The translations under genes and the position numbers were made by a program. A stretch of 51,486 nucleotides of DNA. Source: Betaproteobacteria bacterium. GTDB taxonomy: Bacteria; Pseudomonadota; Gammaproteobacteria; Burkholderiales; SG8-39. The notes under the pieces were generated by a model, which saw only the letters and a program-made list of their open reading frames with translations, had not been told where the DNA came from and made no database searches. The DNA is taken from the NCBI GenBank assembly GCA_039931635.1, contig JBDTRO010000279.1, positions 1-51,486 on the forward strand. The letters run 5' to 3'. Every line of letters starts with the position of its first letter. Position 1 is the first letter of the stretch. Positions 2,076 through 33,490 of the stretch are shown here, one piece after another.

Positions 2076-2085
2076 GGAGAACGCC

Positions 2086-2724: not shown

Positions 2725-2972
2725 TGCGGCGCCTGTTGGTGACGACGGTGGTGCTGTCCGGCGTTCTGACTCTTCCCGCATGCATGGAAGTCGAGCAGAC
2801 GACTTCGCCGGAGAGGCAAGCCGGCCAGACGGTCAGGCGCGACACGGCGGCCTGGAACAACGAGCCGCTTGCCAATGGCCCGAAGTGGAGCAAGGGCGAC
2901 CGCACGAGCTGGGAAGAGCAGATCAAGCGGCGCCAGCTGACCCAGCACGAAGACCGTCGTATCTACCAGTAA
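2724..2972 (+). CDS. Small putative lipoprotein (82 aa) encoded between the FDH beta and gamma genes
   Basis: The in-frame ATG at 2724 shares its A with the beta-subunit TGA (gTGATG). MRRLLVTTVVLSGVLTLPAC reads as a signal peptide plus a lipobox-like LPAC. The remainder is hydrophilic. I recognise no family. Confidence 0.5.
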   Translation: MRRLLVTTVVLSGVLTLPACMEVEQTTSPERQAGQTVRRDTAAWNNEPLANGPKWSKGDRTSWEEQIKRRQLTQHEDRRIYQ

Positions 2973-2976
2973 CGCC

Positions 2977-7826: not shown

Positions 7827-8743
7827 TTCGGTTCGATCGGCCTGCCGGATTTCTTCCAGTCCTCGATGCCACCCGACAGGAAGCGCGCCGTGATGCCTGC
7901 GTCGCGCAGCCGTGCCGCGGTGGACTGACCTACCTCGTGCCCATACACGCAATACACCACCACTTCGGCGCCGGCATACTCGGCCGCCCATTCGTCCACG
8001 CGCTCGGGATCGCGCCACACCGCGCCTTCGATCAAGTCGGGCGCAGCGTCGTAGGCCCCCTTGCGCCGAACGTCGATGCGCTTGATCCCGCCCGAGCTCA
8101 ACAGGATTGCGGCGGAGGCAGCAAGCGCCGTGGTCGAGGCATCGACCGCCGCAGCATAGCGCAGCGCCACGCCATCCCAATCGATGTTCTCCATGTACGC
8201 GGCCACGTATGCCTTGGCGTTGGCGCCATAGTCCATGTGATACGAATGCTCGTACATATCGAGGGCCAGGATCGGCGCCGCGCCAGCGAGCAAATGGGTG
8301 TGATCGGCAGCCCAGTGATTCAGGAGCCGGTTCTCGCGCGTGGACCAGGAGAGCAGGACCCAGCCCGACCCGCCACCCATCGCCGTCGCCAACGCGACAA
8401 ACTCATCCCGCCATCGCTCGAAGCTGCCAAAGTCGCGCTTCAGCCCGACGCCGAAACCTGCCGGCTTGCCTGCCGACTTGAGGGTGCCATCGCCGCCCAG
8501 GCTGGCGAAGTAAAGTTCGTGCAAGCCCATGGAGTTGGCCGCGATCAGTTCTTCGCGTTTCAGCCCGTTGATGCGGAAGCCGGGCGCCGATGCCCAGTCG
8601 AGCCCGGCGAGTTCGGCGCGGATCGCGTGCAGGCGCTTGACGGCGCCGCTGTAATTGTTCTGGTGATGGGATTGCAGCAGGCGCTCGGAAAGGCCTTTCA
8701 GCTTCGCGGCATCGAAGGGCAGGGGAAGGATGGCAGGGATCAT
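7823..8743 (-). CDS. Fe/Mn-SOD-like (ChrC-like) domain fused to a C-terminal single-domain rhodanese
   Basis: The N-terminal ~200 aa read as [24 protein letters not shown]...GLHELYFAS...GSGWVLL...[15 protein letters not shown], an SOD fold with the four metal ligands present. The C-terminal ~90 aa read as IDVRR...[10 protein letters not shown]...[23 protein letters not shown], a rhodanese with its catalytic Cys. ATG 8743 overlaps the upstream stop (ATGA). Confidence 0.8.
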
Positions 8744-9519
8744 TTGTAGGTCTCCGGGTTCCAGGTGTGGATTTCCGACTTGCCTTCCTTGCACCAACGG
8801 TAGAGCGCGTCGTACAGGGTCATGCCGTGCTCGAGCATCTCATGGTCGTTCCTGAAAACGAGCGACAGCCCCAGGGACACGGCCAGCAGTCCCGCCGCCT
8901 GCGGTGCAAGGCCGAGCTTGCCGGTATCGGCGGCGCGCACGATCCGTGCAAGCTTGTCCAGCGCGGGGTCTTTCAGGCGGTACCGCGCGATGAACGCGTC
9001 GAAGCTGCAGAAGTCCCCTTCGTGCGTGAATTCGACGTCTGCGACGTCGTAGGGCACAGCTTCCCGTTCAGCCGCGATCTTTCTTACATCCTGCGTTGGC
9101 ACGTAGAGGAATTCGGCATCCGGATCGATGAACCGCTTCACCAGCCACGGGCAGGCGATGCGGTCGATCTTCGGCCGCTCGCGCGTTACCCAGCGGGAGC
9201 TTGCCCCTTTTGGCTTGCCAAAGAGCGCCCCGCCGGCTTCGCGCCAGGCTTCCAGTCCGCCTTCGAGGTAACGGGCGCCCAACGCCATTGCCGCGTTCTG
9301 GCTGACCTCATGCCCGTGAACGCAATACACGACCACGTCGGTTTCGCCGGGGAGGCTCTTGCGCCACTCGGCGACCCGCAGCGGATCGCGCCGCAGCGCG
9401 CCGCGGACCAGATCCGGGGCGCCGAGGAAGGTGGGGCTCTTGCGCACGTCGATGACGATGGGCGGCGCGCTGGAAACCAGGCGCGCATGGAGTTCAGCCG
9501 GCGTTATGGATGCATTCAT
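8740..9519 (-). CDS. N-terminal rhodanese fused to a ChrB C-terminal (chromate-resistance) domain
   Basis: aa 1-100 read as VIDVRKS...RRDPLRVAEW...VVVYCVHGHEVSQNAAMAL (rhodanese). aa ~105-259 read as WVTRERPKIDRIACPWLVKRFIDPDAEFLYVP...EFTHEGDFCSFDAF, clearly paralogous to the C-domain of ChrB at 11632..12588 (WATRKDPWVDRLASAWLIKRFIDPAARFVWLD). Confidence 0.8.
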   Translation of the reverse strand: MNASITPAELHARLVSSAPPIVIDVRKSPTFLGAPDLVRGALRRDPLRVAEWRKSLPGETDVVVYCVHGHEVSQNAAMALGARYLEGGLEAWREAGGALFGKPKGASSRWVTRERPKIDRIACPWLVKRFIDPDAEFLYVPTQDVRKIAAEREAVPYDVADVEFTHEGDFCSFDAFIARYRLKDPALDKLARIVRAADTGKLGLAPQAAGLLAVSLGLSLVFRNDHEMLEHGMTLYDALYRWCKEGKSEIHTWNPETYK

Positions 9520-9594
9520 GATTTCCTCATTCTTTCACTATCGGATTGCAAACGAGGTCGGCCAGGCAGTTACGCCACCTTCTCCTCGAATCAA

Positions 9595-10545
9595 TTACGT
9601 GTGCATCCTGATCGCGCCGCCGGCCGCCTTCCATCCCGAATGGCCGACATTCATGTACCGAGCGTCGAAGCCGGCGTCGCGCAGCGCGATCGCGGTCTTG
9701 CAGCCGACGTGGAAGCCGTAGGCGCAGTACACCACCACGGGCTTCTCCTTGGAGAGCTCGCCCATCCATTCCCCGACGCGCTCGGGATCGCGCCACTCCA
9801 CGCCGTCGGCGATGTCCTGCTGGCGCGAGACGAAATGCTTGGGCCGCGTGTCGATGAGCTGGACTTTGCCCTCTGCCAGCATCTCCCTGACTTCCTCGAC
9901 GCCAACACCCTGGATGTCGCCGAACTCAGGCTGCAGCAGCGGCCGCGGCGGCGCCGCCTTCGTCGCGTCCTCGTAGCGTTCCCCGATCCCCTGCCAGTCG
10001 ACATTGCGCAGAAACGTGTCGACATAGGCCTTCACGTTCGCGCCAAAATCGATGTGGTAGGCATGCTCATACATGTCGAGCGCAAGTATCGGGATGCCGC
10101 CCGCCACCGACTGGCTGTGATCTGCCGCGTACTGGTTGATGAGGCGCCCGTCGCGCGGCATCCAGGTGAGCAGCACCCAGCCGGAGCCGCCGCCGAGCGC
10201 ATAGCCCATGGCGGAGAATTCGGCGCGCCAGCGCTGCAAGGAGCCGAAGTCGCGCGCCAGCGCTTCGGACATCGGCGGGATCACCCTTCCTTCGCCGCCC
10301 ATGCTGGCGAAATAGAGCTCGTGCAAGAGCGTGGAATTAAGCGCTACCAGCTCCTCGCGCTTTAGCCCGTTGATGACGTTTACGGGCGCCTTGGCATAGT
10401 CGAGCGCTTCGAGCTGCTCGGTAATGGCGTTCAGGCGCCGCAGTGCGCCGCCGTAATTGTTCTCGTAGTGGCTCTCGATGAGTTTCAGCGATAGACCGCT
10501 GAGGGTCCAGGGACGGCAATGGATCTGTTTCAATTGATATTTCAT
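9595..10545 (-). CDS. Second Fe/Mn-SOD-like (ChrC-like)::rhodanese fusion protein
   Basis: Same architecture as 7823..8743: LIESHYENNYGG...LLHELYFAS...GSGWVLLTW...[15 protein letters not shown], then IDTRPK...WRDPERVGEW...VVVYCAYGFHVGCKTAIALRDAG. Strong SD GAGGAG lies 6 nt upstream and overlaps the OCD stop. Confidence 0.8.
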   Translation of the reverse strand: MKYQLKQIHCRPWTLSGLSLKLIESHYENNYGGALRRLNAITEQLEALDYAKAPVNVINGLKREELVALNSTLLHELYFASMGGEGRVIPPMSEALARDFGSLQRWRAEFSAMGYALGGGSGWVLLTWMPRDGRLINQYAADHSQSVAGGIPILALDMYEHAYHIDFGANVKAYVDTFLRNVDWQGIGERYEDATKAAPPRPLLQPEFGDIQGVGVEEVREMLAEGKVQLIDTRPKHFVSRQQDIADGVEWRDPERVGEWMGELSKEKPVVVYCAYGFHVGCKTAIALRDAGFDARYMNVGHSGWKAAGGAIRMHT

Positions 10546-10557
10546 CGCTTGCTCCTC

Positions 10558-11547
10558 TTAAGAAAAAGGAAATCGGGTTCCCGCGCCTGCATTGAGCGCG
10601 TGACGGTAAGTGGCAATCGCCGCAGCGACATCCTGGAGTCCGGTGCCTGTTGAATCGAATACGACGATCTCGTCGGTGGACATGCGCCCTTGCTTCCTGC
10701 CGCTCACCACTTCGCCGAGCTCAGCGTGAACATCGCCAGGAGTCATCGTTCCGGCGGCGATGGCATGATGGAGATCGCCGATCCTGCAAGCCTGCTCGGT
10801 CAGATCGGTGACGACGGTCGCCTGCGCCATCAGGTCGGGATCGATCTCCTGCTTGCTCTCGCTGTCCGCACCCACTGCGGCGATGAAGGTTCCGGGGCGC
10901 ACCATTTTCCTCGTCACGAAGAAGCGCTGAGCAGTGGTGCAGGTGACGACGAGGTCGCTCTGTCCCACGGCCTCAGCCAGGTTCGGCGCAGCCACGATCG
11001 GGATAGCGAGTTCCTTCCCGAGCGAGATGGCGAAGGCCGCCGCTTTGGCGGCGGCCTGGTCGTACGCCAGGACCTGGCGCGGCCTGCGCACCCGCAGCAG
11101 CGCGCGCAATTGAGCCGCCGCCTGTCCGCCGCACCCGCAAATCAGTGCCGTCCCGCATTCCTCCCGTGCCAGGTATTTCGCTGCCACGGCCGTTGCAGCA
11201 GCGGTGCGCAGCGCTGTAATGGAGATCGAATCCATGATTGCGAGCGGCGCGCCATTGCCGGCATCGGAGAGGATCACGGCGCCCTGGATCGTTGGGAGTC
11301 CGTTGCGGATCGCATTCTGCGGGAAGTTGGCATTGAGCTTGGCGGCAAAGTACGGCCGGTCAAGCGCCAGAAATCCGGCCTTGACGTGAAATCCACCATC
11401 CCCGGAGTGCATGCCCAGGATTCCCGGCGGCGGTACCTGGCCGAGCGCGAGCTGCCTGAAGGCGTCCTCGACCGCGGCTATGCATGCATCCGGTGTAAGG
11501 AGCCGCTCGACGTCGCCCCGTGACAGCAGCAGTGTTCCGTTGTTCAT
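10558..11547 (-). CDS. Ornithine cyclodeaminase / mu-crystallin family protein
   Basis: 329 aa, with a Rossmann segment LICGCGGQAAAQLRAL and family-typical ITALRTAAATAVAAKYLA and IAAVGADSESKQEID. It is the first gene of the minus-strand chr operon. Confidence 0.8.
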   Translation of the reverse strand: MNNGTLLLSRGDVERLLTPDACIAAVEDAFRQLALGQVPPPGILGMHSGDGGFHVKAGFLALDRPYFAAKLNANFPQNAIRNGLPTIQGAVILSDAGNGAPLAIMDSISITALRTAAATAVAAKYLAREECGTALICGCGGQAAAQLRALLRVRRPRQVLAYDQAAAKAAAFAISLGKELAIPIVAAPNLAEAVGQSDLVVTCTTAQRFFVTRKMVRPGTFIAAVGADSESKQEIDPDLMAQATVVTDLTEQACRIGDLHHAIAAGTMTPGDVHAELGEVVSGRKQGRMSTDEIVVFDSTGTGLQDVAAAIATYRHALNAGAGTRFPFS

Positions 11548-11602
11548 GGGGACAGAGCGTAGTCAGTCGCCCGAGCTTCGTCCAGAGGGTTTGGCTAGTT
11601 AT

Positions 11603-11620
11603 TATCACTAATATGTGATA
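11603..11620. promoter_or_regulatory. Perfect inverted repeat TATCAC-N6-GTGATA in the chrB / chr-operon divergent promoter region (candidate operator)
   Basis: TATCACtaatatGTGATA read directly from an AT-rich 84-bp spacer, 12 nt upstream of the chrB ATG (11632). It is flanked by -10-like hexamers (TAATAT, TATAAC). Confidence 0.5.
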
Positions 11621-11631
11621 TCTATAACACA

Positions 11632-12588
11632 ATGACTATTCTCGATGCGCTGATTCTCAGTCTGCCGACCCGGAACTCGACCGTCCGCATGCGCGCATGG
11701 CGCGCCCTGAAAGACTCTGGCTGCGGCGTGCTGCGAGACGGTGTCTATGTCCTGCCCGCCAGCGCGGTGGCAAACGCCGCACTCGGGGAGGTTGAATCGG
11801 ACATCCGTTCAAGCGGTGGCTTCGCCATGCGGGTCGAGCTGCACCTCAAGACCGACGAGCAGCGCGCGCATCTGCGCGGCCTTTTCGATCGCAGCCCCGA
11901 CTACGCGGCGCTGCTTGGCGAGATCAAGGACGCTCGCGCACGACTTCGGCGTCTCGGTCCGCGCAAGGCGCAAACCTGCGTCCACCGGTTGCAGCGCCAG
12001 TTCGACAAGCTTGCTGCCGTTGACTTCTTTCCCGGCGCGGCGAAAACCCAGGCGGCAGACGCCATCGCGACGCTGAAAAGAGATTATCGGGAGACTTACG
12101 CGCAGGGCGAACCGCGCGTATCCCGCCGGCGGCTGCGACCGGCCGATCGGGCGAAATACGAGACCCGCACCTGGGCGACACGTAAGGATCCGTGGGTAGA
12201 CCGCCTCGCAAGCGCATGGCTCATCAAACGATTCATCGATCCTGCTGCGCGGTTCGTCTGGCTCGATCGTCCGAGCAACCTGCCGCGCAAAGCGGTCGGA
12301 TACGACTTCGACGGCGCTGAATTCACCCATGTCGGAAACCGCGTGACTTTCGAAGTGCTCATGGAAACCTTTGGTCTGGACAAGGACCCGGCGCTTGCCG
12401 CCATCGCCGCGTCCGTGCACTTCCTCGATGTGGGCGGCGCCACTGCGGCAGACGCCAAGGGCCTGGAAACTGTCCTCAAGGGAGTGAAGGAGAAAGCCCG
12501 CAATGACGATGCGATGCTCGCCGAGGCAGTCCGCATCTTTGACCACTTTTATTCGGCGTACGCAGAGAGAAAATCCGTTTCCGCCTAA
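11632..12588 (+). CDS. chrB: Chromate resistance regulator ChrB (N and C domains)
   Basis: 318 aa. The N-terminus LILSLPTRNSTVRMRAWRALKDSGCGVLRDGVYVLP and the C-domain WATRKDPWVDRLASAWLIKRFIDP...FDGAEFTHVGNRVTFEVL are typical of ChrB. It is divergent from the chrA-containing operon. Confidence 0.85.
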   Translation: MTILDALILSLPTRNSTVRMRAWRALKDSGCGVLRDGVYVLPASAVANAALGEVESDIRSSGGFAMRVELHLKTDEQRAHLRGLFDRSPDYAALLGEIKDARARLRRLGPRKAQTCVHRLQRQFDKLAAVDFFPGAAKTQAADAIATLKRDYRETYAQGEPRVSRRRLRPADRAKYETRTWATRKDPWVDRLASAWLIKRFIDPAARFVWLDRPSNLPRKAVGYDFDGAEFTHVGNRVTFEVLMETFGLDKDPALAAIAASVHFLDVGGATAADAKGLETVLKGVKEKARNDDAMLAEAVRIFDHFYSAYAERKSVSA

Positions 12589-13619
12589 GCTGCCCGCTTT
12601 CGCGGACGCGGTTGTTTCAGCCATGTGAGCGCCGCGCCCAATTCCTCCCGATCGCCGGCATTGGCGGCATCGTAGCCGGCGAGCTGCAACGCTTCCTTCT
12701 GGAATCCGCTGCTGCGCATCGCAGCGAGCAGCAGCTGCAACGGCGGCTCGCGGAAAGTCTTGCGCTGGAGCGCCAGATAGTAACGTTCGGTGGCGAGCGG
12801 AACAAACTCGAGGCTATAGCGTGCCGCGGCCGCGCGCAGCCCGAAGCCTGCGTCCGCGCGTCCATCCGCGACCGCGGCTGCGACCGCCAGATCCACGTCG
12901 TCATGCGGGCCTGGGCCCGGCGGCCGGTTCATGAAGCGCAGGCCGGCGCGCGCGAGGTCGCGAACGCCGCGCACCCGCACGCCAGGGCGGACGATGATGC
13001 CTTGCTCGCGGGTCACGAAATGCAGCAACTGGTGCCGCTGCGGATCGAGCCAGCGTCCGAGCGCGGCGGCGGCGGCGGCGGCGCGCGGCAGGGCGTCGGC
13101 AACATGGAATCCCGCCAGGTCGCATTCCCCCCGCGCCAGCGCGGCGAGGCATTCGTCGGCGCCCCGGAAGGCGATGTCCAGGCGCAGGCGCGGCGCGCAT
13201 AGCCGCGCGAGCACGGGAAGGGCCAGGTCGTGGCTCGCACGCAGGGAAAGATGCGATGCCTGTCCGGGCCCCGCGCCTGCGAGCATCTCCTGCACCTCCC
13301 GGCGCAGCCGTTCCAGTTGCGCGTCGAGAGTAGTGCGCACGTGAGCATCCGCTGCCAGGAGTTTGCGACCGTAGTCCGTGAGACGCGCGCCCTTGCCCCG
13401 TTGCATATCCACAAGCGGAAAACCCAGCGCGCGCGCGCCGGCGCCCAGCAGTCCCCAGGCGTGACGGTAGGAAAGACCTGCCGCATGCGCGGCTTCGCGC
13501 AACGAGGCGGCACGCGAGAGCGCCGAAAGCAGGGCGAGCAGCGCCTGGCCGTGGCGGGGCGACAGGCCTTCGCCCGCGAGCCAGCTTGGCTTCAGGTCAA
13601 TGTCCGGGCTTATATGCAA
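12585..13619 (-). CDS. ModE-type winged-helix DNA-binding domain fused to a periplasmic-binding-protein-like sensor domain (TunR-like tungstate/molybdate regulator)
   Basis: The N-terminus ...ASLREAAHAAGLSYRHAWGLL...GFPLVDMQRGKGARLTDYGRKLL resembles the ModE N-domain. The C-terminal ~230 aa are PBP-like (no Mop domains). The TTG start at 13619 is the only start in frame near the spacer. Divergent from tupBCA. Confidence 0.7.
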   Translation of the reverse strand: MHISPDIDLKPSWLAGEGLSPRHGQALLALLSALSRAASLREAAHAAGLSYRHAWGLLGAGARALGFPLVDMQRGKGARLTDYGRKLLAADAHVRTTLDAQLERLRREVQEMLAGAGPGQASHLSLRASHDLALPVLARLCAPRLRLDIAFRGADECLAALARGECDLAGFHVADALPRAAAAAAALGRWLDPQRHQLLHFVTREQGIIVRPGVRVRGVRDLARAGLRFMNRPPGPGPHDDVDLAVAAAVADGRADAGFGLRAAAARYSLEFVPLATERYYLALQRKTFREPPLQLLLAAMRSSGFQKEALQLAGYDAANAGDREELGAALTWLKQPRPRKRAA

Positions 13620-13691
13620 AAGATTACCTATTTATTCTTCCGCTGCTGTTCGCATACAGTGATGTTGTCTCAATTAATATGCAAATGCAAA
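13612..13691. promoter_or_regulatory. Direct repeats of ATATGCAAA in the regulator / tupB divergent spacer (candidate regulator sites)
   Basis: ATATGCAAA occurs at 13612..13620 (overlapping the TTG start of the regulator) and again at 13677..13685. A third ATGCAAA follows at 13685..13691. The spacer is visibly AT-rich. TAATAT (13675..13680) is -10-like. Confidence 0.3.
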
Positions 13692-13698
13692 CATAAGT

Positions 13699-14349
13699 AT
13701 GGATACGCTCGGCCAGATTGTTGCCCTGAGCCTCGCGGTGAGCCTTTCGGCTGTGCTGCTGGCGGCGTTGATCGGATTGCCACTGGGCGCCGCCATTGCC
13801 GTCGGGCGCTTTCCCGGCCGGCGCGCGCTGATCGTGCTGCTCAATGCATTGATGGGGCTGCCACCGGTTGTGGTCGGGCTGCTGGTCTACCTGCTCCTGT
13901 CGCGGGCTGGACCGCTGGGGGAAATGGGATTGCTGTTTACGCCGCCGGCAATGGTGATCGCGCAAACCCTCCTGGTGCTGCCGATCATCGCCGCGCTTTG
14001 CCGTCAGTCGGTGGAAGACGCCTGGGTCGAGTACGAGGAGCAACTGCGTTCGCTGGGCGCCCACGGCCTTCGCGCCGCCGTGACCCTGGTCTGGGATATC
14101 CGCTTTTCCCTGGTGACCGTGGTACTCGCCGGGCTGGGGCGGGCGCTCGCCGAAGTGGGCGCGGTAATCATCGTTGGCGGCAACATCGATGGCGTCACGC
14201 GCGTAATGACCACCACCATCGCGCTCGAGACCTCGAAGGGCGATCTGCCCCTTGCGTTGTCGCTCGGCTTCATTCTTATTTCGCTGGTGATCCTGCTGAA
14301 CGCAGCGGCCCATCTCATCAAGGAAGCCGCGCAGCGGCGCTACGGCTGA
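13699..14349 (+). CDS. tupB: Tungstate ABC transporter permease (TupB-like)
   Basis: 216-aa ABC permease with five hydrophobic helices and an EAA-like loop. Its stop overlaps the start of the ATPase gene (14349). Confidence 0.8.
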   Translation: MDTLGQIVALSLAVSLSAVLLAALIGLPLGAAIAVGRFPGRRALIVLLNALMGLPPVVVGLLVYLLLSRAGPLGEMGLLFTPPAMVIAQTLLVLPIIAALCRQSVEDAWVEYEEQLRSLGAHGLRAAVTLVWDIRFSLVTVVLAGLGRALAEVGAVIIVGGNIDGVTRVMTTTIALETSKGDLPLALSLGFILISLVILLNAAAHLIKEAAQRRYG

Positions 14350-15077
14350 TGGCGGCCTCCGGGAGCATCCTGCCCTTGTCGCTGCGCGGCGTTCGTTTTG
14401 CCGCCGGCGGGCGCAACATCATCGACGGCATGTCGGCCACAATCGGCGCCGGGCCGGCGACCATCATCCTGGGCGCCAATGGCGCCGGCAAGAGCGTGCT
14501 GATGCGACTGATGCATGGCCTGCTGCAGCCGACGTCGGGAGAAATTGCCTGGCGCGCCCAGGACGCGGAGCGGGTGCGGCGTGGGCAGGCGATGGTGTTC
14601 CAGCGGCCGGTGCTGCTGCGCCGTTCGGCACTTGCCAACATCCTCTATGCGCTGGAACTCGCGCGCGTCCCGGCTGCGGAATGCGCGCGGCAGGCGATGG
14701 ACGCGCTGCGCGAAGTTGGCCTTGCCGACGTGGCGCACCGGCCGGCGCGCGTCCTCTCCGGCGGCGAACAGCAGCGCCTTGCGCTGGCGCGCGCCTGGGC
14801 GCTGCACCCCGAAGTGCTGTTCCTGGATGAGCCGACCGCGAACCTGGATCCCGGCGCGACGCGCGAGATCGAAAGCGTGATCAAGGCGTTCGACGCGTCC
14901 GGAACCAAGATCGTCATGTCGACACACAACCTCGGCCAGGCGCGCCGGCTCGGCGACGAAGTGCTGTTCATCCATCAGGGGCGTCTGGTCGAGAGCGCGC
15001 CGGTGGATGCATTTTTCGGCGAACCCGCCTCCGCTGAAGCGGCAGCGTTCGTCAAAGGAGAACTGCCTTGGGTCTAG
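14349..15077 (+). CDS. tupC: Tungstate ABC transporter ATP-binding protein (TupC-like)
   Basis: Internal ATG at 14349 of tracked ORF 13230..15077 (TGATG overlap with tupB). Walker A GANGAGKS, signature LSGGEQQRLALARA, Walker B VLFLDEPT. The 373 codons upstream in the tracked ORF run antisense to the regulator and are spurious. Confidence 0.85.
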   Translation: MAASGSILPLSLRGVRFAAGGRNIIDGMSATIGAGPATIILGANGAGKSVLMRLMHGLLQPTSGEIAWRAQDAERVRRGQAMVFQRPVLLRRSALANILYALELARVPAAECARQAMDALREVGLADVAHRPARVLSGGEQQRLALARAWALHPEVLFLDEPTANLDPGATREIESVIKAFDASGTKIVMSTHNLGQARRLGDEVLFIHQGRLVESAPVDAFFGEPASAEAAAFVKGELPWV

Positions 15078-15877
15078 TCGTGAAGTTCGTGCTTGCGTCG
15101 CTGCTTTGTACCCCGGTCTACGCGCAGCAGAGATTCATAACAGTCGCATCCACGACCTCAACCGAGCAGTCGGGCCTTTTCAAGTACCTGCTGCCACTGT
15201 TCGAGAACAAGACCGGCATCCAGGTGCGCGTGGTTGCGCTGGGTACGGGTCAGTCGCTCGACATGGGCAGGCGCGGCGACGCAGACGTGGTGTTTGTCCA
15301 TGCCAAGCCGCTCGAGGAGAAGTTCGTCGCCGATGGCTTCGGTGTGCAGCGCTTCGAGGTCATGTACAACGACTTCGTGCTGGTCGGACCGAAGTCCGAT
15401 CCGGCGAAGGTGGGCGGCAGCAAGGACATCGTTACGGCGCTGCAGAAGATCCGGGGCGCGCAGGCGCCATTCGCCTCGCGAGGCGACAAGAGCGGCACGC
15501 ATTTCGCCGAGCTCGAACTCTGGCAAGCCGCCGGCATCGATATCGCTAAGGACAAGGGACCGTGGTACCGGGACACCGGTTCCGGCATGGGCCCGACGCT
15601 CAATACTGCGTCTGGAATGAATGCGTATGCGCTCGCGGACCGGGGAACGTGGCTGTCGTTCAAAAACCGCGGCGCGCTGGTCATCTCCGTGGAGGGCGAC
15701 CGGCGTCTGTTCAACCAGTACGGCGTGATCCTGGTGAATCCGGCGAAGCATCCCCACGTGAAAAGAGAAATGGGCCAGGCCTTCGTCGATTGGGTGATTT
15801 CGCTTGAAGGACAGAACGCCATTGCGTCCTACAAAATCGGTGGCGAGCAGCTATTCTTCCCGAATGCGGCGAACTGA
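15068..15877 (+). CDS. tupA: Tungstate ABC transporter substrate-binding protein (TupA-like)
   Basis: Signal peptide ...LASLLCTPVYAQ, then ITVASTTSTEQSGLFKYLLPLFE, GTGQSLDMGRRGDADVVFVHA and RGDKSGTHFAE, typical of TupA/WtpA-type binding proteins. TTG start with GGAG 7 nt upstream, overlapping the tupC end. Confidence 0.8.
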   Translation: MGLVVKFVLASLLCTPVYAQQRFITVASTTSTEQSGLFKYLLPLFENKTGIQVRVVALGTGQSLDMGRRGDADVVFVHAKPLEEKFVADGFGVQRFEVMYNDFVLVGPKSDPAKVGGSKDIVTALQKIRGAQAPFASRGDKSGTHFAELELWQAAGIDIAKDKGPWYRDTGSGMGPTLNTASGMNAYALADRGTWLSFKNRGALVISVEGDRRLFNQYGVILVNPAKHPHVKREMGQAFVDWVISLEGQNAIASYKIGGEQLFFPNAAN

Positions 15878-16232
15878 CCGGACGCGGTATCGCGGCCTGA
15901 CCCTGCGGGTGCTCGCCAGGTCCGGCGCCGCGATGGGGCCGGGCAAGGCGGAGCTCGTCGAGCGCATCGGCGGGACCGGGTCGATCTCCGCGGCGGCGCG
16001 GGAGATCGGCATGTCGTACCGGCGCGCCTGGCAGCTCGTCGAATCGCTGAATGCGGATTTTCGCGAACCGGTCGTGGAGACGGCAACCGGGGGCGCGCGT
16101 GGCGGCGGGGCGCGCGTGACGCCGTTCGGCGCACGCGTCGTGGCGCAGTTCCGGGCAATGGAGCATAAGGCCTCGAAAGCGGTCGCCGCCGACCTGAAGC
16201 GCTTCGCCAGCCATCTGGGAAGGAAAAAGTAA
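15864..16232 (+). CDS. ModE N-terminal-domain-only DNA-binding protein (no Mop domains)
   Basis: Internal ATG 15864 of ORF 15804..16232, overlapping the tupA stop by 14 nt. MGPGKAELVERIGGTGSISAAAREIGMSYRRAWQLVESLN...ATGGARGGGARVTPFG matches the ModE wHTH signature (GSIS..A...G.SY..AW....TGG..GGGA). 122 aa. Confidence 0.75.
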   Translation: MRRTDRTRYRGLTLRVLARSGAAMGPGKAELVERIGGTGSISAAAREIGMSYRRAWQLVESLNADFREPVVETATGGARGGGARVTPFGARVVAQFRAMEHKASKAVAADLKRFASHLGRKK

Positions 16233-16244
16233 TCGCGCCGGCTT

Positions 16245-16268
16245 CGTTATATTCCGTGGTATATAACG
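16245..16268. promoter_or_regulatory. ModE-type operator (Mo box): CGTTATAT-N8-ATATAACG
   Basis: Perfect 8-nt inverted arms. It matches 17/18 specified positions of the remembered consensus CGnTATATA-N6-TATATAnCG and the TATAT-N7-TAYAT core. It ends immediately before the TTG(16269)/ATG(16272) of the TauE gene. Confidence 0.8.
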
Positions 16269-17027
16269 TTGATGCAGTTCCCGGACCCCGCGCTCGTCGC
16301 CTTGCTCGCCGCCGGCATGCTGCTGGCTGCTTTTCTATACGCGTCGGTCGGCCATGGCGGGGCGTCCGCGTACCTTGCGGCGATGGCCATTGCCGGAATT
16401 GCGCCGGCCGAAATGCGGCCGATCGCGTTGATGTTGAACGTGTTGGTGTCATCGCTTGCGACTTACAAATTCTGGCGCGCCGGCCACTTTCATTGGGCCC
16501 TGTTCTGGCCTTTCGCCGCGGTTTCCATCCCGGCCGCCTACCTGGGTGGCGCAATCACTCTCCCGGGCGCGGCCTACAAGGTGCTTGTCGGACTGGTGCT
16601 GTTGTACGCGGGTTGGCAACTATGGTGGAGCGCCCGCCTGGGAGAGGAACTGCGCCCGGCGCGGCGGTTGCCGGTAACGCTGGCCATGGCGATAGGTGCC
16701 GTGCTCGGCGTGCTTTCCGGCCTCACTGGTGTGGGCGGCGGGATATTCCTGAGTCCGTTGCTGCTGCTGTTCGGCTGGGCGGGAACCAAGCAGACCTCCG
16801 CGGTCGCAGCGCCGTTCATTCTGGTCAATTCGCTGGCGGCCCTGGCGGCCGGTTTTGTAAGGAATCCAGCCCTCCCGCCCGACTATGTCTGGTGGCTGAT
16901 GGCGACGGTGGCCATGGGGGGCTGGGCAGGGGCGGAATACGGCAGCCGGCGCTTCGCCAACCCGCTCATCCGCCAGGTGCTGGCCGTGGTCCTCGCTATC
17001 GCCGGAGGGAAAATGGTTCTGGTGTAG
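16269..17027 (+). CDS. TauE/SafE-family anion (sulfite-type) permease
   Basis: 252 aa, 7-8 hydrophobic helices, with the family-typical motifs SVGHGGASAYLAAM and GVGGGIFLSPLLLL. The start is TTG 16269 or ATG 16272. Confidence 0.75.
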   Translation: MMQFPDPALVALLAAGMLLAAFLYASVGHGGASAYLAAMAIAGIAPAEMRPIALMLNVLVSSLATYKFWRAGHFHWALFWPFAAVSIPAAYLGGAITLPGAAYKVLVGLVLLYAGWQLWWSARLGEELRPARRLPVTLAMAIGAVLGVLSGLTGVGGGIFLSPLLLLFGWAGTKQTSAVAAPFILVNSLAALAAGFVRNPALPPDYVWWLMATVAMGGWAGAEYGSRRFANPLIRQVLAVVLAIAGGKMVLV

Positions 17028-17052
17028 ATTGCGCCTTCTCCAAAGGATCCCC

Positions 17053-17388
17053 ATGAGCAGCTACTACGAATCCGAAGACCTGAAGAAGTTCGGCGACATC
17101 GGCCAGCACGCGAAGAAGCTCGCGGATGGATTTTTCAAGTATTACGGCGACGTCACCGGCACCGATGGCGCGCTTACGAAGCGCGAGAAGGCGCTCATCG
17201 CTTTGGCCGTGTCGCACGCCCAGAGGTGCCCGTACTGCATCGACGCCTATACGACGCAGTGCCTGGAGACCGGTTCCAACCCGGAGCAGATGATGGAGGC
17301 GGTGCACGTGGCCGCGGTGATGCAGGCCGGTATCACGCTGGTGCACTCGGTGCAGATGCAGAACCACCTGAAGAAGATGGTTCTTTGA
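17053..17388 (+). CDS. AhpD/carboxymuconolactone-decarboxylase-fold 'peroxidase-like' protein, partner of the ArsS-type radical SAM enzyme
   Basis: 111 aa: MSSYYESEDLKKFGDIG...LTKREKALIALAVSHAQRCPYCIDAYT... (CxxC redox motif). AAGGA lies 5 nt upstream of ATG 17053. From memory this matches the family found next to ArsS / rSAM-Cys-rich enzymes. Confidence 0.7.
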   Translation: MSSYYESEDLKKFGDIGQHAKKLADGFFKYYGDVTGTDGALTKREKALIALAVSHAQRCPYCIDAYTTQCLETGSNPEQMMEAVHVAAVMQAGITLVHSVQMQNHLKKMVL

Positions 17389-18407
17389 GCACGGCGGTTT
17401 CCCTGAAGCTGGTGAAAGCGAAGTCGAAATACGACTTCGACGGCTTGCTGCGCGAGCGCGGTATCGAGCTGCCGCCGCTGTCCATCGACACGCTGCAGGT
17501 GAATGTCACCAAGCTGTGCAACCAGGTCTGCCGGCACTGCCACGTCGACGCAGGGCCTCAGCGCAAGGAGATGCTTTCGCCCGAGGGCGTCGCCAAGTGC
17601 CTGGAGATCCTGGAGAAGCAGCCGCAGATCGCCAAGCTCGACATCACCGGCGGCGCGCCCGAGCTGCATCCCGCCTTCGATGCCTTCGTCGAGAAGGCAG
17701 TTGCGCTGGGCAAGCACGTGATGGTGCGGCACAACCTGACGGTGCAGCTGGACGGCAATCCGCAGACGAAGGAGAGCAAGGAATACCTGCCGGGTTTCTT
17801 CGCCAGGAACCGCATCGAGGTCATTTCCTCGCTGCCGTACTACCAGGAGTACTTCACCGACGCGCAGCGCGGGTCGGGCGTGTTCAAGAAGAGCATGGAA
17901 GCGATGCGGCGCCTGAATGCCGAGGGCTATGGCGTCGAGGGCAGCGGGCTGCAGCTGAATCTGGTCTACAACCCGGTCGGGCCCTACCTGCCGGCGGCGC
18001 AGGCCGGCCTGGAAGCGGACTACAAGCGCGAGTTGAAGGACAAATTCGGGTTGGTGTTCAACAACCTGTTTACGATCACCAACATGCCGATCAACCGCTT
18101 CAAGTTGCACCTGGACAAGTCGGGGCAGTACGAGGCCTACATGGAGAAGCTGCTCGCGGCCTTCAACCCGGCGGCGGCTGGCGGCGTGATGTGCCGGAGC
18201 CTGATCAGCGTCGGTCATGACGGCCGGATCTACGACTGCGATTTCAACCAGATGCTGGAAATGGATGCGGCGGACGCGAATGGCCGGAGGCTGAGCATTT
18301 TCGATTTCGAGTTCGAGCGCGCGATCCAGCGGCCGATTCGCTTCGGCGACCATTGCCTGGGCTGTACCGCGGGCGCCGGCAGTTCCTGCGGCGGAGCGAC
18401 CGCGTGA
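17385..18407 (+). CDS. Radical SAM / Cys-rich-domain protein of the ArsS (arsenosugar-type) family
   Basis: CNQVCRHC (CxxxCxxC) about 45 aa from the start, and a C-terminal Cys-rich tail MCRSLISVGHDGRIYDCDFNQ...FGDHCLGCTAGAGSSCGG. The start is uncertain: TTG 17385 overlaps the upstream TGA (TTGA), with GTG 17412 as the alternative. The tracked ORF start at 17226 lies inside the previous gene. Confidence 0.75.
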   Translation: MSTAVSLKLVKAKSKYDFDGLLRERGIELPPLSIDTLQVNVTKLCNQVCRHCHVDAGPQRKEMLSPEGVAKCLEILEKQPQIAKLDITGGAPELHPAFDAFVEKAVALGKHVMVRHNLTVQLDGNPQTKESKEYLPGFFARNRIEVISSLPYYQEYFTDAQRGSGVFKKSMEAMRRLNAEGYGVEGSGLQLNLVYNPVGPYLPAAQAGLEADYKRELKDKFGLVFNNLFTITNMPINRFKLHLDKSGQYEAYMEKLLAAFNPAAAGGVMCRSLISVGHDGRIYDCDFNQMLEMDAADANGRRLSIFDFEFERAIQRPIRFGDHCLGCTAGAGSSCGGATA

Positions 18408-18898
18408 AGACTTTTGGGTTCGCTGGCTGGTCCGGCAGCGGCAAGACCACGCTGATCGAAAAACTGATCCCGCTGTTCGTGCAACGAGGTTTGCGCGTCT
18501 CGCTGATCAAGCACGCGCACCATTCGTTTGACGTCGACGTGCCTGGCAAGGATTCCTACCGCCACCGCCATGCCGGCGCGTCGGAGGTGCTGGTGACTTC
18601 GTCGCGGCGCTGGGTGCTGATGCACGAGCTGCGCGGCGCGCGGGAGCCGTCGTTCGAGGAGCAGGTCAAGCACTTCTCGCCTTGCGACCTGCTGATCGTC
18701 GAGGGCTATAAATTCGCGCCCATCCCCAAGCTCGAGGTATACCGTGCCGAAACGGGAGAGGGATTTCTGCACCCGAAGGACCCGCACATCGTCGCCATCG
18801 CGACCGACGCGCGCGTGGAGACCACGTTGCAGCAGCTCGACCTGAACGACCACCAGGGGATCGCCGCTTTTATCATGACGCACCAGAAGTTCGCATGA
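18404..18898 (+). CDS. mobB: Molybdopterin-guanine dinucleotide biosynthesis adapter MobB
   Basis: GTG 18404 overlaps the rSAM stop (GTGA). VKTFGFAGWSGSGKTTLIEKLIP (P-loop)...LLIVEGYK is typical of MobB. Confidence 0.85.
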   Translation: MKTFGFAGWSGSGKTTLIEKLIPLFVQRGLRVSLIKHAHHSFDVDVPGKDSYRHRHAGASEVLVTSSRRWVLMHELRGAREPSFEEQVKHFSPCDLLIVEGYKFAPIPKLEVYRAETGEGFLHPKDPHIVAIATDARVETTLQQLDLNDHQGIAAFIMTHQKFA

Positions 18899-20100
18899 AC
18901 AATGGGCTGCTGTCCGTAGACGAAGCGCTCGAAACCCTGCTTGCCGGCGCGAAACCCGTGTCCGCGGTCGAACAGGTGCCGACCATGGATGCGGTGAATC
19001 GCGTGCTCGCGCGCGACCAGACCTCCACCATGGACGTGCCGCCAATGGACAACAGCGCCATGGATGGTTACGCGGTGCGCCTTGTCGACCTGAAGGGGCC
19101 GGACACGAAACTGCGCGTGGCGCAGCGCATTCCCGCCGGCTCCGTGGGTAAGCCGCTGGAGGCAGGCACGGCGGCGCGAATTTTCACTGGCGCCCCGGTG
19201 CCGGCTGGCGCAGACGCGATCGTGATGCAGGAATTCACCGAGGTGGAAAGAGAAACCGTAAAAGTAAAAAAGATGCCCAGGCCGGGCGAATGGATAAGGT
19301 TGACCGCCAGCGACATTCGCAAGGGTGGCACAGTTCTAGCGGCCGGAAAGCGCCTGCTGCCGCAGGACACGGGTCTCGCGGCCTCGGTCGGCATCAAGGC
19401 GCTGCCCGTTTTCCGGAAAGTGCGGCTAGGACTGTTCTTCACAGGCGATGAGCTGGTGATGCCCGGCGACCCGCTGCCCCCGGGACGGATCTACAACTCC
19501 AACCGCTTCACGCTGAACGGCCTTGCCGCCGCCTTCGGCTGCGAGGTGCGCGACTACGGCATTGTGCCGGACAGGCTGGAGGCGACACGCGAAGTATTGC
19601 GCCGCGCCGCGGCCGAGAACGACATCATCGTCACTTCCGGTGGAGTATCGGTAGGCGACGAGGACCACGTAAAGCCGGCGGTGGAGGCCGAGGGATCGCT
19701 GCTCATGTGGAAGATCGCGATGAAGCCCGGGCGGCCGCTCGCGTTCGGCAGGGTGAAGGACGCCGCGTTCATCGGCCTGCCGGGCAACCCGGTGTCCAGT
19801 TTCGTCACCTTCCTGATTTTTGTCCGGCCTTTTCTTCTGAAAACCCAGGGACAGATAGATACCCAACCCAGAACAATTGATGCTCGTGCGGATTTCGACT
19901 GGCCGGAACCCGACGCGAGACGCGAATTCCTGCGCGTAAAGTGGAATGCGCAAGGCGGGCTGGATCTCTATTCGACGCAGGACTCGGCGGTGATGACCTC
20001 CACCGCGTGGGCAGACGGGCTGCTGGACAACCCGGCGGCCGGCGCGATCCGCAAGGGCGACCGCGTCCGCTTCTTGCCATATTCGGAGCTATACCGATGA
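18895..20100 (+). CDS. moeA: Molybdopterin molybdotransferase MoeA
   Basis: 401 aa with MoeA motifs: LSVDEAL, PPMDNSAMDGYAV, TSGGVSVGDEDHVK and GLPGNPVSSFVTF. Its ATG overlaps the mobB stop. Confidence 0.9.
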   Translation: MNNGLLSVDEALETLLAGAKPVSAVEQVPTMDAVNRVLARDQTSTMDVPPMDNSAMDGYAVRLVDLKGPDTKLRVAQRIPAGSVGKPLEAGTAARIFTGAPVPAGADAIVMQEFTEVERETVKVKKMPRPGEWIRLTASDIRKGGTVLAAGKRLLPQDTGLAASVGIKALPVFRKVRLGLFFTGDELVMPGDPLPPGRIYNSNRFTLNGLAAAFGCEVRDYGIVPDRLEATREVLRRAAAENDIIVTSGGVSVGDEDHVKPAVEAEGSLLMWKIAMKPGRPLAFGRVKDAAFIGLPGNPVSSFVTFLIFVRPFLLKTQGQIDTQPRTIDARADFDWPEPDARREFLRVKWNAQGGLDLYSTQDSAVMTSTAWADGLLDNPAAGAIRKGDRVRFLPYSELYR

Positions 20101-20354
20101 AAGTGAGAGTTCTCTATTTCGCGGGCATCCGGGAAAAGCTGGGCCGGGACGCGGAGGATCTCGTCCTGCCGGCGGGCGTCGGCACGGTTGCCGAGCTCCG
20201 GGTCCACCTCCGGGGCCGCGGCGATGCCTGGGCGGAGGCGCTGGATGAAGGCAAACTGCTGCGCGCGGCGGTGAACCAGGACATGGCGCATCCGACGGCT
20301 GCGATCAAGGCAGGCGACGAGGTGGCTTTTTTCCCGCCGGTGACCGGCGGATGA
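20097..20354 (+). CDS. moaD: Molybdopterin synthase sulfur-carrier subunit MoaD
   Basis: 85 aa starting at ATG 20097 (ATGA overlap with moeA), with a ubiquitin-like fold and the C-terminal FFPPVTGG. Confidence 0.85.
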   Translation: MKVRVLYFAGIREKLGRDAEDLVLPAGVGTVAELRVHLRGRGDAWAEALDEGKLLRAAVNQDMAHPTAAIKAGDEVAFFPPVTGG

Positions 20355-20776
20355 AAATTTCGGTGCAACCGGGTGATTTTGATGTTGGTGTTGAAATAAA
20401 AAATATCTCAAAAAACAACAGCATCGGGGCCGTCGCCAGTTTTGTCGGTTTGGTGCGCGACGTGGCCATGACGCTGGAGCATTACCCCGGCATGACCGAG
20501 CGCGCGATCGCCAAAATCGTCGACGAGGCGAAAGCCCGCTGGCAGGTGATCGACTGCGCCGTGATCCACCGCTACGGCGCGCTCCAGCCGAACGACCAGA
20601 TCGTCATGGTGGCGGTGGCGAGCGGGCATCGCGGCGACGCTTTCGCCGCCTGCGAATTCATCATGGACTACCTCAAGACCCAGGCGCCGTTCTGGAAAAA
20701 GGAGCACACGCCCGGGGGCGCGCAATGGGTGGAAGCGAAGGCGGTCGACGACCAGGCGGCGGAACGCTGGAAATGA
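20351..20776 (+). CDS. moaE: Molybdopterin synthase catalytic subunit MoaE
   Basis: 141 aa: GAVASFVGLVRD...HYPGMTE...VAVASGHRGDAFAACEFIMDYLKTQAPFWKKE. ATGA overlap with moaD. Confidence 0.9.
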   Translation: MKISVQPGDFDVGVEIKNISKNNSIGAVASFVGLVRDVAMTLEHYPGMTERAIAKIVDEAKARWQVIDCAVIHRYGALQPNDQIVMVAVASGHRGDAFAACEFIMDYLKTQAPFWKKEHTPGGAQWVEAKAVDDQAAERWK

Positions 20777-21159
20777 CAGACCTCAGGATGATCCTTGCCG
20801 TCGCGGCCGGCGGCGCCCTCGGGTCCGTCGCGCGCTTCCTGGTGGGCATTGGCGCCACGAGGCTTTTCGGCCTGGCCTTCCCGTGGGGAACGTTGCTCGT
20901 CAACATCGCCGGCTCTTTCCTGATCGGCGTGTTGGTCGAACTGTTCGCCCTGAAATTGGACCTGCCGCAGGAGGCGCGCGGGTTTCTCACCGTCGGCATC
21001 TGCGGCGGATTTACGACCTTTTCGACGTTCTCGCTGGATGCCTACGTATTGATCGAGCGTGGAGACTGGTGGCTCGCGGCTGGCTACGTCGTCGGATCCG
21101 TGGCCCTTTCGATCGGTGCCCTGATTGCGGCCCTCCACCTGGTGCGCTCGCTCGCCTAG
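20773..21159 (+). CDS. crcB: Fluoride channel CrcB/FluC
   Basis: 128 aa from ATG 20773 (ATGA overlap with moaE). GGALGSVARF, WGTLLVNIAGSFLIG and GFTTFSTFS are CrcB hallmarks. Confidence 0.85.
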   Translation: MTDLRMILAVAAGGALGSVARFLVGIGATRLFGLAFPWGTLLVNIAGSFLIGVLVELFALKLDLPQEARGFLTVGICGGFTTFSTFSLDAYVLIERGDWWLAAGYVVGSVALSIGALIAALHLVRSLA

Positions 21160-22430
21160 GCGTCGTCCCTCGCCAGCCGCAGCCCGCTGAACTGCCAGCG
21201 CGCGTCGGGCGGGAAGAAGTTTCGGTAGCTCGCGCGAATGTGGCTCGCTGGCGTGCCGCAAGAGCCGCCGCGCAGCACGTACTGACCCGACATGAATTTG
21301 CCGTTGTATTCGCCCACTGCGCCCGCGGCGATGCGTAAACCCGGGTAGGGCGAGTAGTCGCTGCGCGTCCACTCCCATACATCGCCAAAAATCTGGGCGG
21401 GAGTGCCGTTCGCGGGGCTTTCGCGCAACGGAAGCGGGTGTAGCGCGCCACTTTCCACGAAGTTGCCTTCGCGGGGCGAGTTCCTAGCGGCAACTTCCCA
21501 CTCGGCCTCGGTCGGCAGCCGTTCCTTTGCCCAGCGTGCAAAGGCCTCGGCTTCGTAGAAGCTAACGTGGCAAATCGGCGTGTTCGGATCCACCGGCACC
21601 ATGCCGTGCAGCGTGAAGGTGCGCCACTCGCCGCCGTGGCGCTCCCAGTACGCGGGTGCCTGCCAGCCGAGCGCATTGACAGCGTCCCAGCCTGCGGACA
21701 GCCACAATTCGGGCCTGCGGTAGCCGCCGTCTTCCACAAAGTCGATAAAGTCACCATGCGTCACGGGGTGGGTCGCGATGCTGAACGCGTCCAGCCAGGC
21801 GCGATGGCGCGGCATTTCATTGTCGAAGCAGAATCCGTCTCCGTCGTGCCCGATCTCGCTCAGCCCTTCCGCATGGAAGATCCATCCCCGTACCCGTGCG
21901 CGGATCGGCGTGAGAGGCCAGGGTTTCTGGTATGCGGGCTTGAGCGGATTGCGCGAAAGCAGGTGCTTCAGATCGGTGAGGATCAATTCCTGGTGCTGCT
22001 GCTCGTGGTGCTGGCCCAGTTCAATCAAATCCGCAATCGAAGCGGAGACGCTTGTCCCGGAGAGAAGCTGCTGCATCGAGGCGTCCACGTGGCGCCGGTA
22101 CGCCAGTACCTCGTCCAGTCGCGGGCGCGACAGCATGCCTCGCTCCGCCCGCGGATGCTTTTCGCCGATCGCGTTGTAGTACGAATTGAACAGCACGCGG
22201 TACGCCGGATCGAACGGCCGGTATCCCCGCAAATACGGCTCGAGCACGAAGGTCTCGAAGAACCAGCTGGTGTGCGCCAGGTGCCACTTGACCGGGCTCG
22301 CGTCCGGCATCGACTGCAGCGTGCAGTCTTCCGCTGAAAGCCCCTGCGTGAGGGCCTCGGTGGCACTGCGCACCTGTGCGTAGCTCACGCCGACGTCGGC
22401 GCGGTGGGTCCTGCCGCTGTCCGGATGCAT
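21156..22430 (-). CDS. egtB: EgtB-like sulfoxide synthase (DinB-like N-domain plus FGE-sulfatase/SUMF1 domain)
   Basis: 424 aa: ...[25 protein letters not shown]...[15 protein letters not shown]...[20 protein letters not shown] (DinB_2-like), then a C-terminal GNVWEWT-type FGE domain ([17 protein letters not shown]...LRGGSC). Its stop overlaps the crcB stop (CTAG). Confidence 0.75.
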
Positions 22431-33429: not shown

Positions 33430-33448
33430 TTCAGCGAATAGCGAAAGA

Positions 33449-33474
33449 GCCCGCGCCGGCGGGCTTTTTTGTTT
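33449..33474 (+). terminator. Rho-independent terminator after usp
   Basis: GCCCGC-gccg-GCGGGC (33449..33464) followed by TTTTTTGTTT. Confidence 0.75.
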
Positions 33475-33490
33475 CTACAATCTGTCTCAA

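Follow-up and report, generated by a model that had tools for sequence, protein, structure and literature searches.

An ArsS-type radical SAM gene pair within a tungstate-uptake-like and molybdenum cofactor gene chain: a lineage-restricted operon context of single origin in Burkholderiales

Gene organization of the chain

Contig JBDTRO010000279.1 of a Betaproteobacteria bacterium of the Burkholderiales (assembly GCA_039931635.1; 51,486 nt, the whole stretch analysed here and hereafter called the window) carries the gene of an ArsS-type radical S-adenosylmethionine (rSAM) enzyme together with that of an AhpD-like partner, and the pair is enclosed in an unbroken chain of co-directional + strand genes that extends over 7.5 kb (13699-21159) from a tupB-like gene to crcB (Table 1). 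All the proteins are members of described families, and the pair stands in an unusual, lineage-restricted operon context. The original prediction had described a run that leads from a ModE operator through a TauE permease and the pair to mobB, moeA, moaD and moaE, and had proposed for the pair an undescribed role in handling Mo, W or a related oxyanion. Every gene and overlap of that run was found where it had been placed, but the chain starts further upstream, as tupB, tupC, tupA and a gene for a ModE N-terminal domain (modE-N) precede the box with their ends overlapping.

Table 1 Features of the gene chain and of the divergent regulator gene beside it, with the matches on which each assignment is based
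Feature	Position	Strand	Match
Regulator with ModE-like N-terminal HTH and PBP-like domain, resembling the TunR/ModE-PBP type	12585..13619	-	TIGR00637 ModE_repress, E=2.6e-9; C-terminal PBP region of PRK14498, E=5e-33
tupB-like ABC permease	13699..14349	+	NF038017, 248 bits (cut-off 100); TupB model, 154.6 bits, under cut-off 320
tupC-like ABC ATPase	14346..15077	+	Generic ABC ATPase matches
tupA-like oxyanion-binding protein	15068..15877	+	NF041772 TupA, E=9e-68, 228.5 bits, under cut-off 400
modE-N, ModE N-terminal DNA-binding domain only, no Mop/TOBE	ORF opens 15804, to 16232	+	TIGR00637, 84.8 bits (cut-off 98.5); HTH_1, 27.6 bits
ModE-type operator, perfect 8-N8-8 palindrome, between modE-N and TauE	16245..16268	.	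Consensus match
TauE/SafE (TSUP family) anion permease	16269..17027	+	PF01925, 116.4 bits against 32.6, full length
AhpD/CMD-fold ArsS partner, CxxC motif RCPYC	17053..17388	+	TIGR04169, 166.8 bits (cut-off 120); Pfam CMD, 60.1 bits
ArsS-type radical SAM protein, CNQVCRHC, DUF3641 Cys-rich domain	17385..18407	+	TIGR04167, 406.4 bits (cut-off 300); DUF3641 (PF12345), 177.8 bits; Radical_SAM, 34.8 bits
mobB	18404..18898	+	TIGR00176, 160.9 bits (cut-off 76.2)
moeA	18895..20100	+	Pfam MoeA_N, MoCF_biosynth, MoeA_C; NF007960, 388 bits, under cut-off 440
moaD	20097..20354	+	TIGR01682, 83.9 bits (cut-off 66)
moaE	20351..20776	+	PF02391, 118.5 bits
crcB fluoride channel, last gene of the chain	20773..21159	+	NF010791, 166 bits (cut-off 129)

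The tupC-like gene shares 4 nt with tupB and 10 nt with tupA, and the probable start of modE-N within its open reading frame (ORF) is the ATG at 15864, giving 15864..16232 and a protein of about 122 aa. Between modE-N and TauE lies a spacer of 36-39 nt (TauE has an alternative ATG start at 16272), which at 39 nt is the largest gap of the chain and is occupied by the palindrome. TauE is separated from the AhpD-like gene by 25 nt containing an AAGGA Shine-Dalgarno-like sequence, the AhpD-like and rSAM genes share a 4-nt TTGA overlap, and at the rSAM/mobB junction the overlap is GTGA, so that the GTG start of mobB lies on the rSAM stop codon. Overlaps of 4 nt follow at mobB/moeA, moeA/moaD, moaD/moaE and moaE/crcB. 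A scan of the window found no intergenic terminator-like site on the + strand, where the terminator-like matches are all inside coding regions, and because the gaps are also tiny, the pair is most probably co-transcribed with the neighbouring genes. No sigma-70 consensus promoter was found by a promoter scan of the window. The Rfam scan of the whole window detected neither a Moco (molybdenum cofactor) nor a fluoride riboswitch nor any other RNA family, so that the chain is not accounted for by regulation at the RNA level. The promoter that serves all 7.5 kb of the chain most likely lies in a 79-nt AT-rich intergenic region (13620-13698) upstream of tupB; this region adjoins the regulator gene that is transcribed divergently from tupB, and contains no ModE-consensus box. 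The orthologue of this regulator at a related locus (L001) has a PF12727 PBP_like domain.

The original prediction had placed the pair next to tupABC. Genes of the tupBCA type do lie directly upstream, but both TupA and TupB score below their equivalog cut-offs, and therefore tungstate is suggested only at the level of the family rather than as an established specificity; the two proteins are components of related oxyanion ABC transporters. The TauE protein, for its part, had no NCBIfam match.

The pair belongs to the ArsS family

Both proteins of the pair exceed the curated NCBIfam equivalog cut-offs (TIGR04167, 'arsenosugar biosynthesis radical SAM (seleno)protein', for the rSAM protein and TIGR04169, 'arsenosugar biosynthesis-associated peroxidase-like protein', for the AhpD-like protein), and Pfam Radical_SAM, DUF3641 and CMD match as well, so the family identity that the original prediction had given is correct. 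The rSAM protein keeps all 17 invariant columns in an alignment of 50 full-length representatives with 34-56% identity, the invariant residues including C45, C49 and C52 of the CX3CX2C motif and C270, C285, C324 and C327 of the Cys-rich domain. Its C-terminal GSSCGG is the Cys form of the Sec/Cys site, and the tail GAGSSCGGATA is kept in 10 loci of the clade described below. In its family motifs, DUF3641, invariant residues and TIGR04169 partner upstream, the protein resembles ArsS. The partner likewise shares with the TIGR04169 peroxidase-like family the CxxC motif and the same-strand place directly upstream of the rSAM gene, and no structural difference from that family was detected. ArsS adenosylates dimethylarsenite to 5'-deoxy-5'-dimethylarsinoyl-adenosine (DDMAA) (PMC13598754).

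More than 8,000 rSAM homologues sharing words with the query were found, and the best 120 are all 82-88% identical to it, come from Burkholderiales or betaproteobacterial metagenome-assembled genomes (MAGs), and bear the names ArsS or 'radical SAM/Cys-rich protein'. Searched exhaustively, the 50%-identity representatives yielded 480 clusters at E <= 1e-30. Among the family representatives there are fusions of the ArsS architecture to an ArsM-type Methyltransf_31 domain in either N- or C-terminal order (P0135, P0159, P0173, P0177 and P0143 were examined). In P0143 the ArsS architecture is joined to a flavin reductase domain, a hint that a dedicated reductant exists. A PDB sequence search with the rSAM protein returned no relative, and there is no solved structure of the ArsS family; the PDB relatives of the AhpD-like protein are AhpD/CMD proteins only. 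As a possible replacement for MoaA the rSAM protein was rejected, because its match to MoaA is limited to the generic N-terminal radical SAM core (31.8 vs 284 bits) and its C-terminus is DUF3641.

Neighbourhood census of ArsS-family loci

We compared the genes within 5 kb of the rSAM gene at 162 ArsS-family loci. Species-representative genomes supplied 80 loci (family alignment), metagenome contigs another 80, and exact protein look-up further contigs; the census covers the closest ~160 of more than 1,200 detected relatives and not the whole family. Neighbour ORFs were scored by phmmer with the window proteins and with seeds from the loci as queries, and in parallel the neighbours were clustered all against all without supervision, the cluster representatives being named with NCBIfam. 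Nine of the loci (the window, L001, L002, L082-L086 and L092) form what we call the clade, that is, Burkholderiales loci at least 77% identical to the window, and 153 lie outside it.

MobB, MoeA, MoaD and MoaE accompany the rSAM gene at all nine clade loci and at none of the 153 others (0/74 when at least 3 kb was available on both sides). Three more clade contigs share the Moco-linked order, so that the chaining to mobB-moeA-moaDE, which had been read from the window, is conserved in every close relative examined (12/12 loci). TupA homologues are also confined to the clade among the census loci, and TauE is present at 6 of the 12 clade loci and at 0/153 others; the best 120 matches of a search for TauE homologues all belong to the same clade, at 83-92% identity. 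The AhpD-like partner was scored at 8/9 clade loci and lies upstream of the rSAM gene at 113/153 others. Arsenosugar-type genes show the reverse distribution: ArsM (34/153), the TIGR04282/TIGR04283 arsenosugar glycosyltransferases (54/153) and purine nucleoside phosphorylase (PNP; 14/153) are each absent from the nine clade loci, and at least one such gene is found at 76 of the 153 loci outside the clade (46/74 with at least 3 kb on both sides) and at 0/9 inside it. The proposed undescribed Mo/W role is therefore not supported, since the linkage does not recur in the census: Moco genes were found at 0/153 loci outside one clade, and 76/153 have an arsenosugar-type gene.

The linkage to arsenosugar genes, at only 76/153, is not strictly defining for the ArsS family, and standalone pairs of ArsS and partner without arsM are common (about half of the loci examined). 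In the canonical arsM-partner-arsS-TIGR04282/TIGR04283-PNP clusters (L088, L089, L099, L101, L161), only the partner and ArsS core is shared with the window, whose rSAM gene has no arsM, glycosyltransferase or PNP nearby, unlike typical ArsS loci, and is flanked instead by the tupBCA-like and mobB-moeA-moaDE genes. In another recurring context, arsS is followed by a second radical SAM gene and by DUF547 (L003:1040-3176; L163, on the Burkholderia glumae plasmid NZ_CP100267.1), with neither arsM nor Moco genes in either case; on the B. glumae plasmid a methylthioadenosine (MTA) phosphorylase gene also lies near the arsS homologue. The arsS genes that a tblastn search detected on plasmids, such as those of B. 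glumae, were all distant (<=52% identity) and had no Moco genes nearby.

Single origin and sister lineages

A neighbour-joining tree built from 159 rSAM sequences groups the Moco-linked proteins in a single clade, which has eight leaves and contains no other sequence. Because the linkage is restricted to this one clade, it reflects a single evolutionary event. The closest lineages outside have other neighbours. In the sister L003 (76% identity) the rSAM gene is followed by the second radical SAM gene and DUF547, in L004 (74%) and L005 (71%) a standalone partner and rSAM pair lies downstream of groEL, and in L087 (70%) and L006 (69%) the ArsM gene abuts the rSAM gene. The G+C content is uniform (0.60-0.69) from tupB to egtB, with no compositional signal of recent insertion, and any insertion is therefore old.

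Variation within the clade

The AhpD-like gene, arsS, mobB, moeA, moaD and moaE make up the constant core of the clade, and the rSAM-mobB spacing stays within -4 to +27 nt in 10 clade loci across 77-88% protein identity. What stands between tupA and the AhpD-like gene differs from locus to locus. This segment holds modE-N, the ModE box and TauE in the window, L083 and L162; TauE alone in L001 and two ERZ1305449 contigs; a periplasmic MBL-fold hydrolase in L082; a metallophosphoesterase-like gene in L085; and nothing in L084 and L086. In L002, a sister species with an 86% identical rSAM protein (Burkholderiales MAG DATBQR010000054.1), the slot between tupA and the AhpD-like/ArsS pair is occupied by genes for an ArsR-family regulator, an LMW-PTP-type ArsC and a MIP-family channel (arsR-arsC-aquaporin, 8035-9596). 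The original prediction had stressed that no arsenic genes accompany the pair. This is true of the 51-kb window, where ArsM, ArsC, ArsR, a MIP channel and an arsenosugar glycosyltransferase are all lacking; it does not extend to the lineage, because L002 has an arsenic context at this very site.

Two of the clade loci (L082:11012-11063 and L162:10086-10137) carry, between the rSAM stop and the mobB start, a short tandem repeat of the initial ~13 nt of mobB (A/TTGAARACCTTCG ... ATGAAAACCTTCG), possibly a scar left by recombination where the insertion joins mobB.

Pairwise ratios of nonsynonymous to synonymous substitution rates (dN/dS) within the clade were 0.077 for the partner and 0.20 for the rSAM gene, compared with 0.18 for MobB, 0.16 for MoeA, 0.17 for MoaE and 0.16 for TupA, and the dN values were alike across the pair and its neighbours, about 0.12. 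The low ratios and the like dN values indicate that the pair is maintained by purifying selection and has co-diverged with the neighbouring genes. With respect to the rest of the ArsS family, the clade differs at 4 of the 111 rSAM columns that are at least 85% conserved outside it (G42T, M64L, L174M and W278H/Y/Q). T42 is also present in L004 and H278 in L003, neither of which is Moco-linked, so that the occurrence of these changes is not tied to the Moco context.

The ModE box and modE-N

The palindrome CGTTATATTCCGTGGTATATAACG is a perfect 8+8 inverted repeat, CGTTATAT-N8-ATATAACG, and agrees with the E. coli ModE consensus CGNTATATA-N6-TATATANCG (quoted as ATCGNTATATA-N6-TATATANCGAT in PMC545781) at 17 of the 18 positions specified in its core. 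It is the sole match in the window, where 0.02 would be expected by chance (0.07 for TATAT-N7-TAYAT), and the near-consensus operator called by the original prediction is thus present and unique. In its palindromic form, its agreement with the core and its position beside oxyanion-uptake and Moco genes, it is like the E. coli-type ModE operators; in contrast to these, it sits between modE-N and TauE, at a start codon, and not upstream of modABC or moaA. The adjacent regulator also differs from those of ModE systems, being a DNA-binding domain only, without Mop domains. A full-length ModE with molybdate-binding Mop domains was not found, and the divergent regulator has a PBP-like domain instead.

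The box is present at all three clade loci that have modE-N (window, L083, L162) and at none of those without it, and is thus absent from 9 of the 12, with L001 keeping only a degenerate half-site; an exact search of the first 81 loci gave no match. The modE-N orthologues of L083 and L162 are 120-121 aa long. In each of the three loci (window 15864-16268; L083:3277-3675; L162:7608-7993) the palindrome is 3' of modE-N and abuts the TauE start codon, and gene and palindrome together look like a mobile regulator-plus-operator unit. Because the box is confined to the modE-N loci, ModE-type control would belong to a sub-lineage, tied there to modE-N and TauE, and would not characterize the ArsS-Moco junction in general. 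Control by a ModE box, which had been ascribed to the operon as a whole, may accordingly be kept for the window but not generalized: TauE and the genes downstream of it are probably under ModE-type control in the sub-lineage that has modE-N and the operator.

Origin and meaning of the linkage

We hold it reasonably likely, though far from certain, that an ordinary ArsS module entered a tup-mob-moe-moa operon by a single insertion, and that the pair descends from it by vertical inheritance. The enzyme would in this case retain the arsenical chemistry of its family, adding the 5'-deoxyadenosyl radical to the lone pair of a trivalent arsenical (dimethylarsenite) to yield DDMAA, and the AhpD-fold CxxC partner would have an accessory redox role. 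The module would have landed between the tupBCA-like uptake operon and mobB-moeA-moaD-moaE in one uncultivated soil Burkholderiales lineage, where purifying selection would have acted on it during vertical inheritance. It would be co-transcribed with the tup-like and Moco genes, possibly from the AT-rich tupB promoter region, and its co-expression with Mo/W genes would be a consequence of where it landed. Genes concerned with anions are gathered in the wider locus, among them formate dehydrogenase, the chromate genes chrA/chrB, the SOD-like and rhodanese fusions, the tup-like transporter, the fluoride channel gene crcB and, in the sister species L002, arsR-arsC-aquaporin. Such linkage gives no ground for concluding that Mo, W or their cofactor is what the enzyme acts on. 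The data establish family membership, synteny, single origin and selective constraint; co-transcription, ModE control and a retained arsenical chemistry are inferred. If this account holds, the case serves mostly as a caution: a tight, translationally coupled context can be an insertion accident of single origin, and functional coupling needs independent recurrences.

Several points weigh against this account. Two of the clade-specific changes, G42T beside CX3CX2C and W278H/Y/Q in the Cys-rich domain, are near catalytic motifs, and the choice of substrate could be altered. The tight and conserved rSAM-mobB junction is compatible with selection for co-expression. No arsM or glycosyltransferase gene was found in the 51-kb window or within 10 kb at the clade loci, and the census, as stated above, covers the closest relatives and not the whole family.

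In a first alternative, the pair would keep its arsenical chemistry and its co-expression with Moco synthesis would be under selection. Vicinal dithiols, among them the dithiolene of molybdopterin, are attacked by trivalent (methyl)arsenicals, and conversion of these to pentavalent adenosyl-arsenicals during synthesis of the cofactor would protect Moco/W-cofactor assembly. Arsenite inhibition of molybdoenzymes is established biochemistry and counts in favour of such a guard, as do the tight, conserved rSAM-mobB junction and a selective constraint on the pair equal to that on the Moco genes. In addition, the locus has other genes against toxic anions: chrA/chrB and crcB, with arsR-arsC-aquaporin in L002. 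However, a single origin cannot separate selection for co-expression from inertia of gene order, and no comparable arrangement was seen at the other 153 loci. We regard this alternative as unlikely, although it deserves some weight.

It is less likely still that the pair, with TauE, was recruited to a new task on Mo/W or a related oxyanion or chalcogen, such as cofactor maturation or metal handling, and no longer carries out arsenic chemistry, as the original prediction implied. The translational chaining to mobB-moeA-moaDE at 12/12 clade loci, the ModE operator upstream in the window, the lack of arsM within reach and the few clade-specific substitutions fit this possibility, and about half of the family loci have no arsenosugar gene nearby, so that the function may exceed the family name. 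But the chaining carries the weight of a single evolutionary event, having arisen once and being found at 0/153 loci elsewhere, and the ModE box is missing from 9/12 clade loci. Moreover, sisters at 69-70% identity abut arsM, L002 has arsR-arsC-aquaporin at the same operon position, and all family-invariant residues are retained. From known chemistry, Mo(VI) and W(VI) oxyanions would offer no lone pair for addition of the 5'-deoxyadenosyl radical. Equally doubtful is the broader proposal that the pair, in some members with TauE, is coupled to Mo/W-cofactor metabolism in either way, as a Mo/W-regulated guard against dithiol-reactive trivalent arsenicals or another soft metalloid while molybdopterin is made, or with a substrate shifted away from arsenic; if it is true, the ModE-box-controlled TSUP permease would be a new oxyanion transporter of the Mo/W regulon.

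That the pair is a decaying or non-functional passenger of an old insertion, as the absence of the arsM and glycosyltransferase pathway partners nearby might suggest, is effectively refuted by the selection and conservation data, because no clade locus has a disrupted reading frame, dN/dS is 0.077 and 0.20 with all invariant residues kept, and full-length homologues at 82-88% identity occur in metagenomes in more than 120 distinct 90%-identity clusters.

Returning to the single insertion of an ordinary ArsS module, this soil Burkholderiales lineage probably expresses the pair along with tungstate uptake and Moco genes. An organism with the pair in a defined, possibly Mo/W-responsive operon could suit the study of the substrate source and of the role of the partner.

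Other features of the window

The formate dehydrogenase that had been noted near the chain is found at 72-4077 and consists of a partial alpha subunit, an FDH3 beta subunit and a gamma subunit. A second Mo enzyme of the window, the large subunit of an XDH/CODH-family molybdenum hydroxylase, is encoded at 33410-35833, ~15 kb downstream of the Moco genes, and on its 3' side, up to 38610, are genes for a trypsin-like protease, a MoxR AAA+ ATPase and a DUF58/VWA protein.

A cluster of the chromate-resistance type occupies 6528-12588. It contains chrA (6528-8180), two SOD-like and rhodanese fusion proteins (7823-8797 and 9595-10545), a ChrB_C and rhodanese protein (8740-9519) and a ChrB-like gene (11632-12588), and an ornithine-cyclodeaminase-family gene is inserted in it (10558-11547). 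At the other end of the chain, on the - strand (21156-22430), lies egtB, which encodes the EgtB sulfoxide synthase of ergothioneine synthesis (TIGR03440, 583 bits; the SenA model gave 367 bits, under its cut-off of 420) and converges on crcB, the ends of the two genes overlapping by 4 nt.

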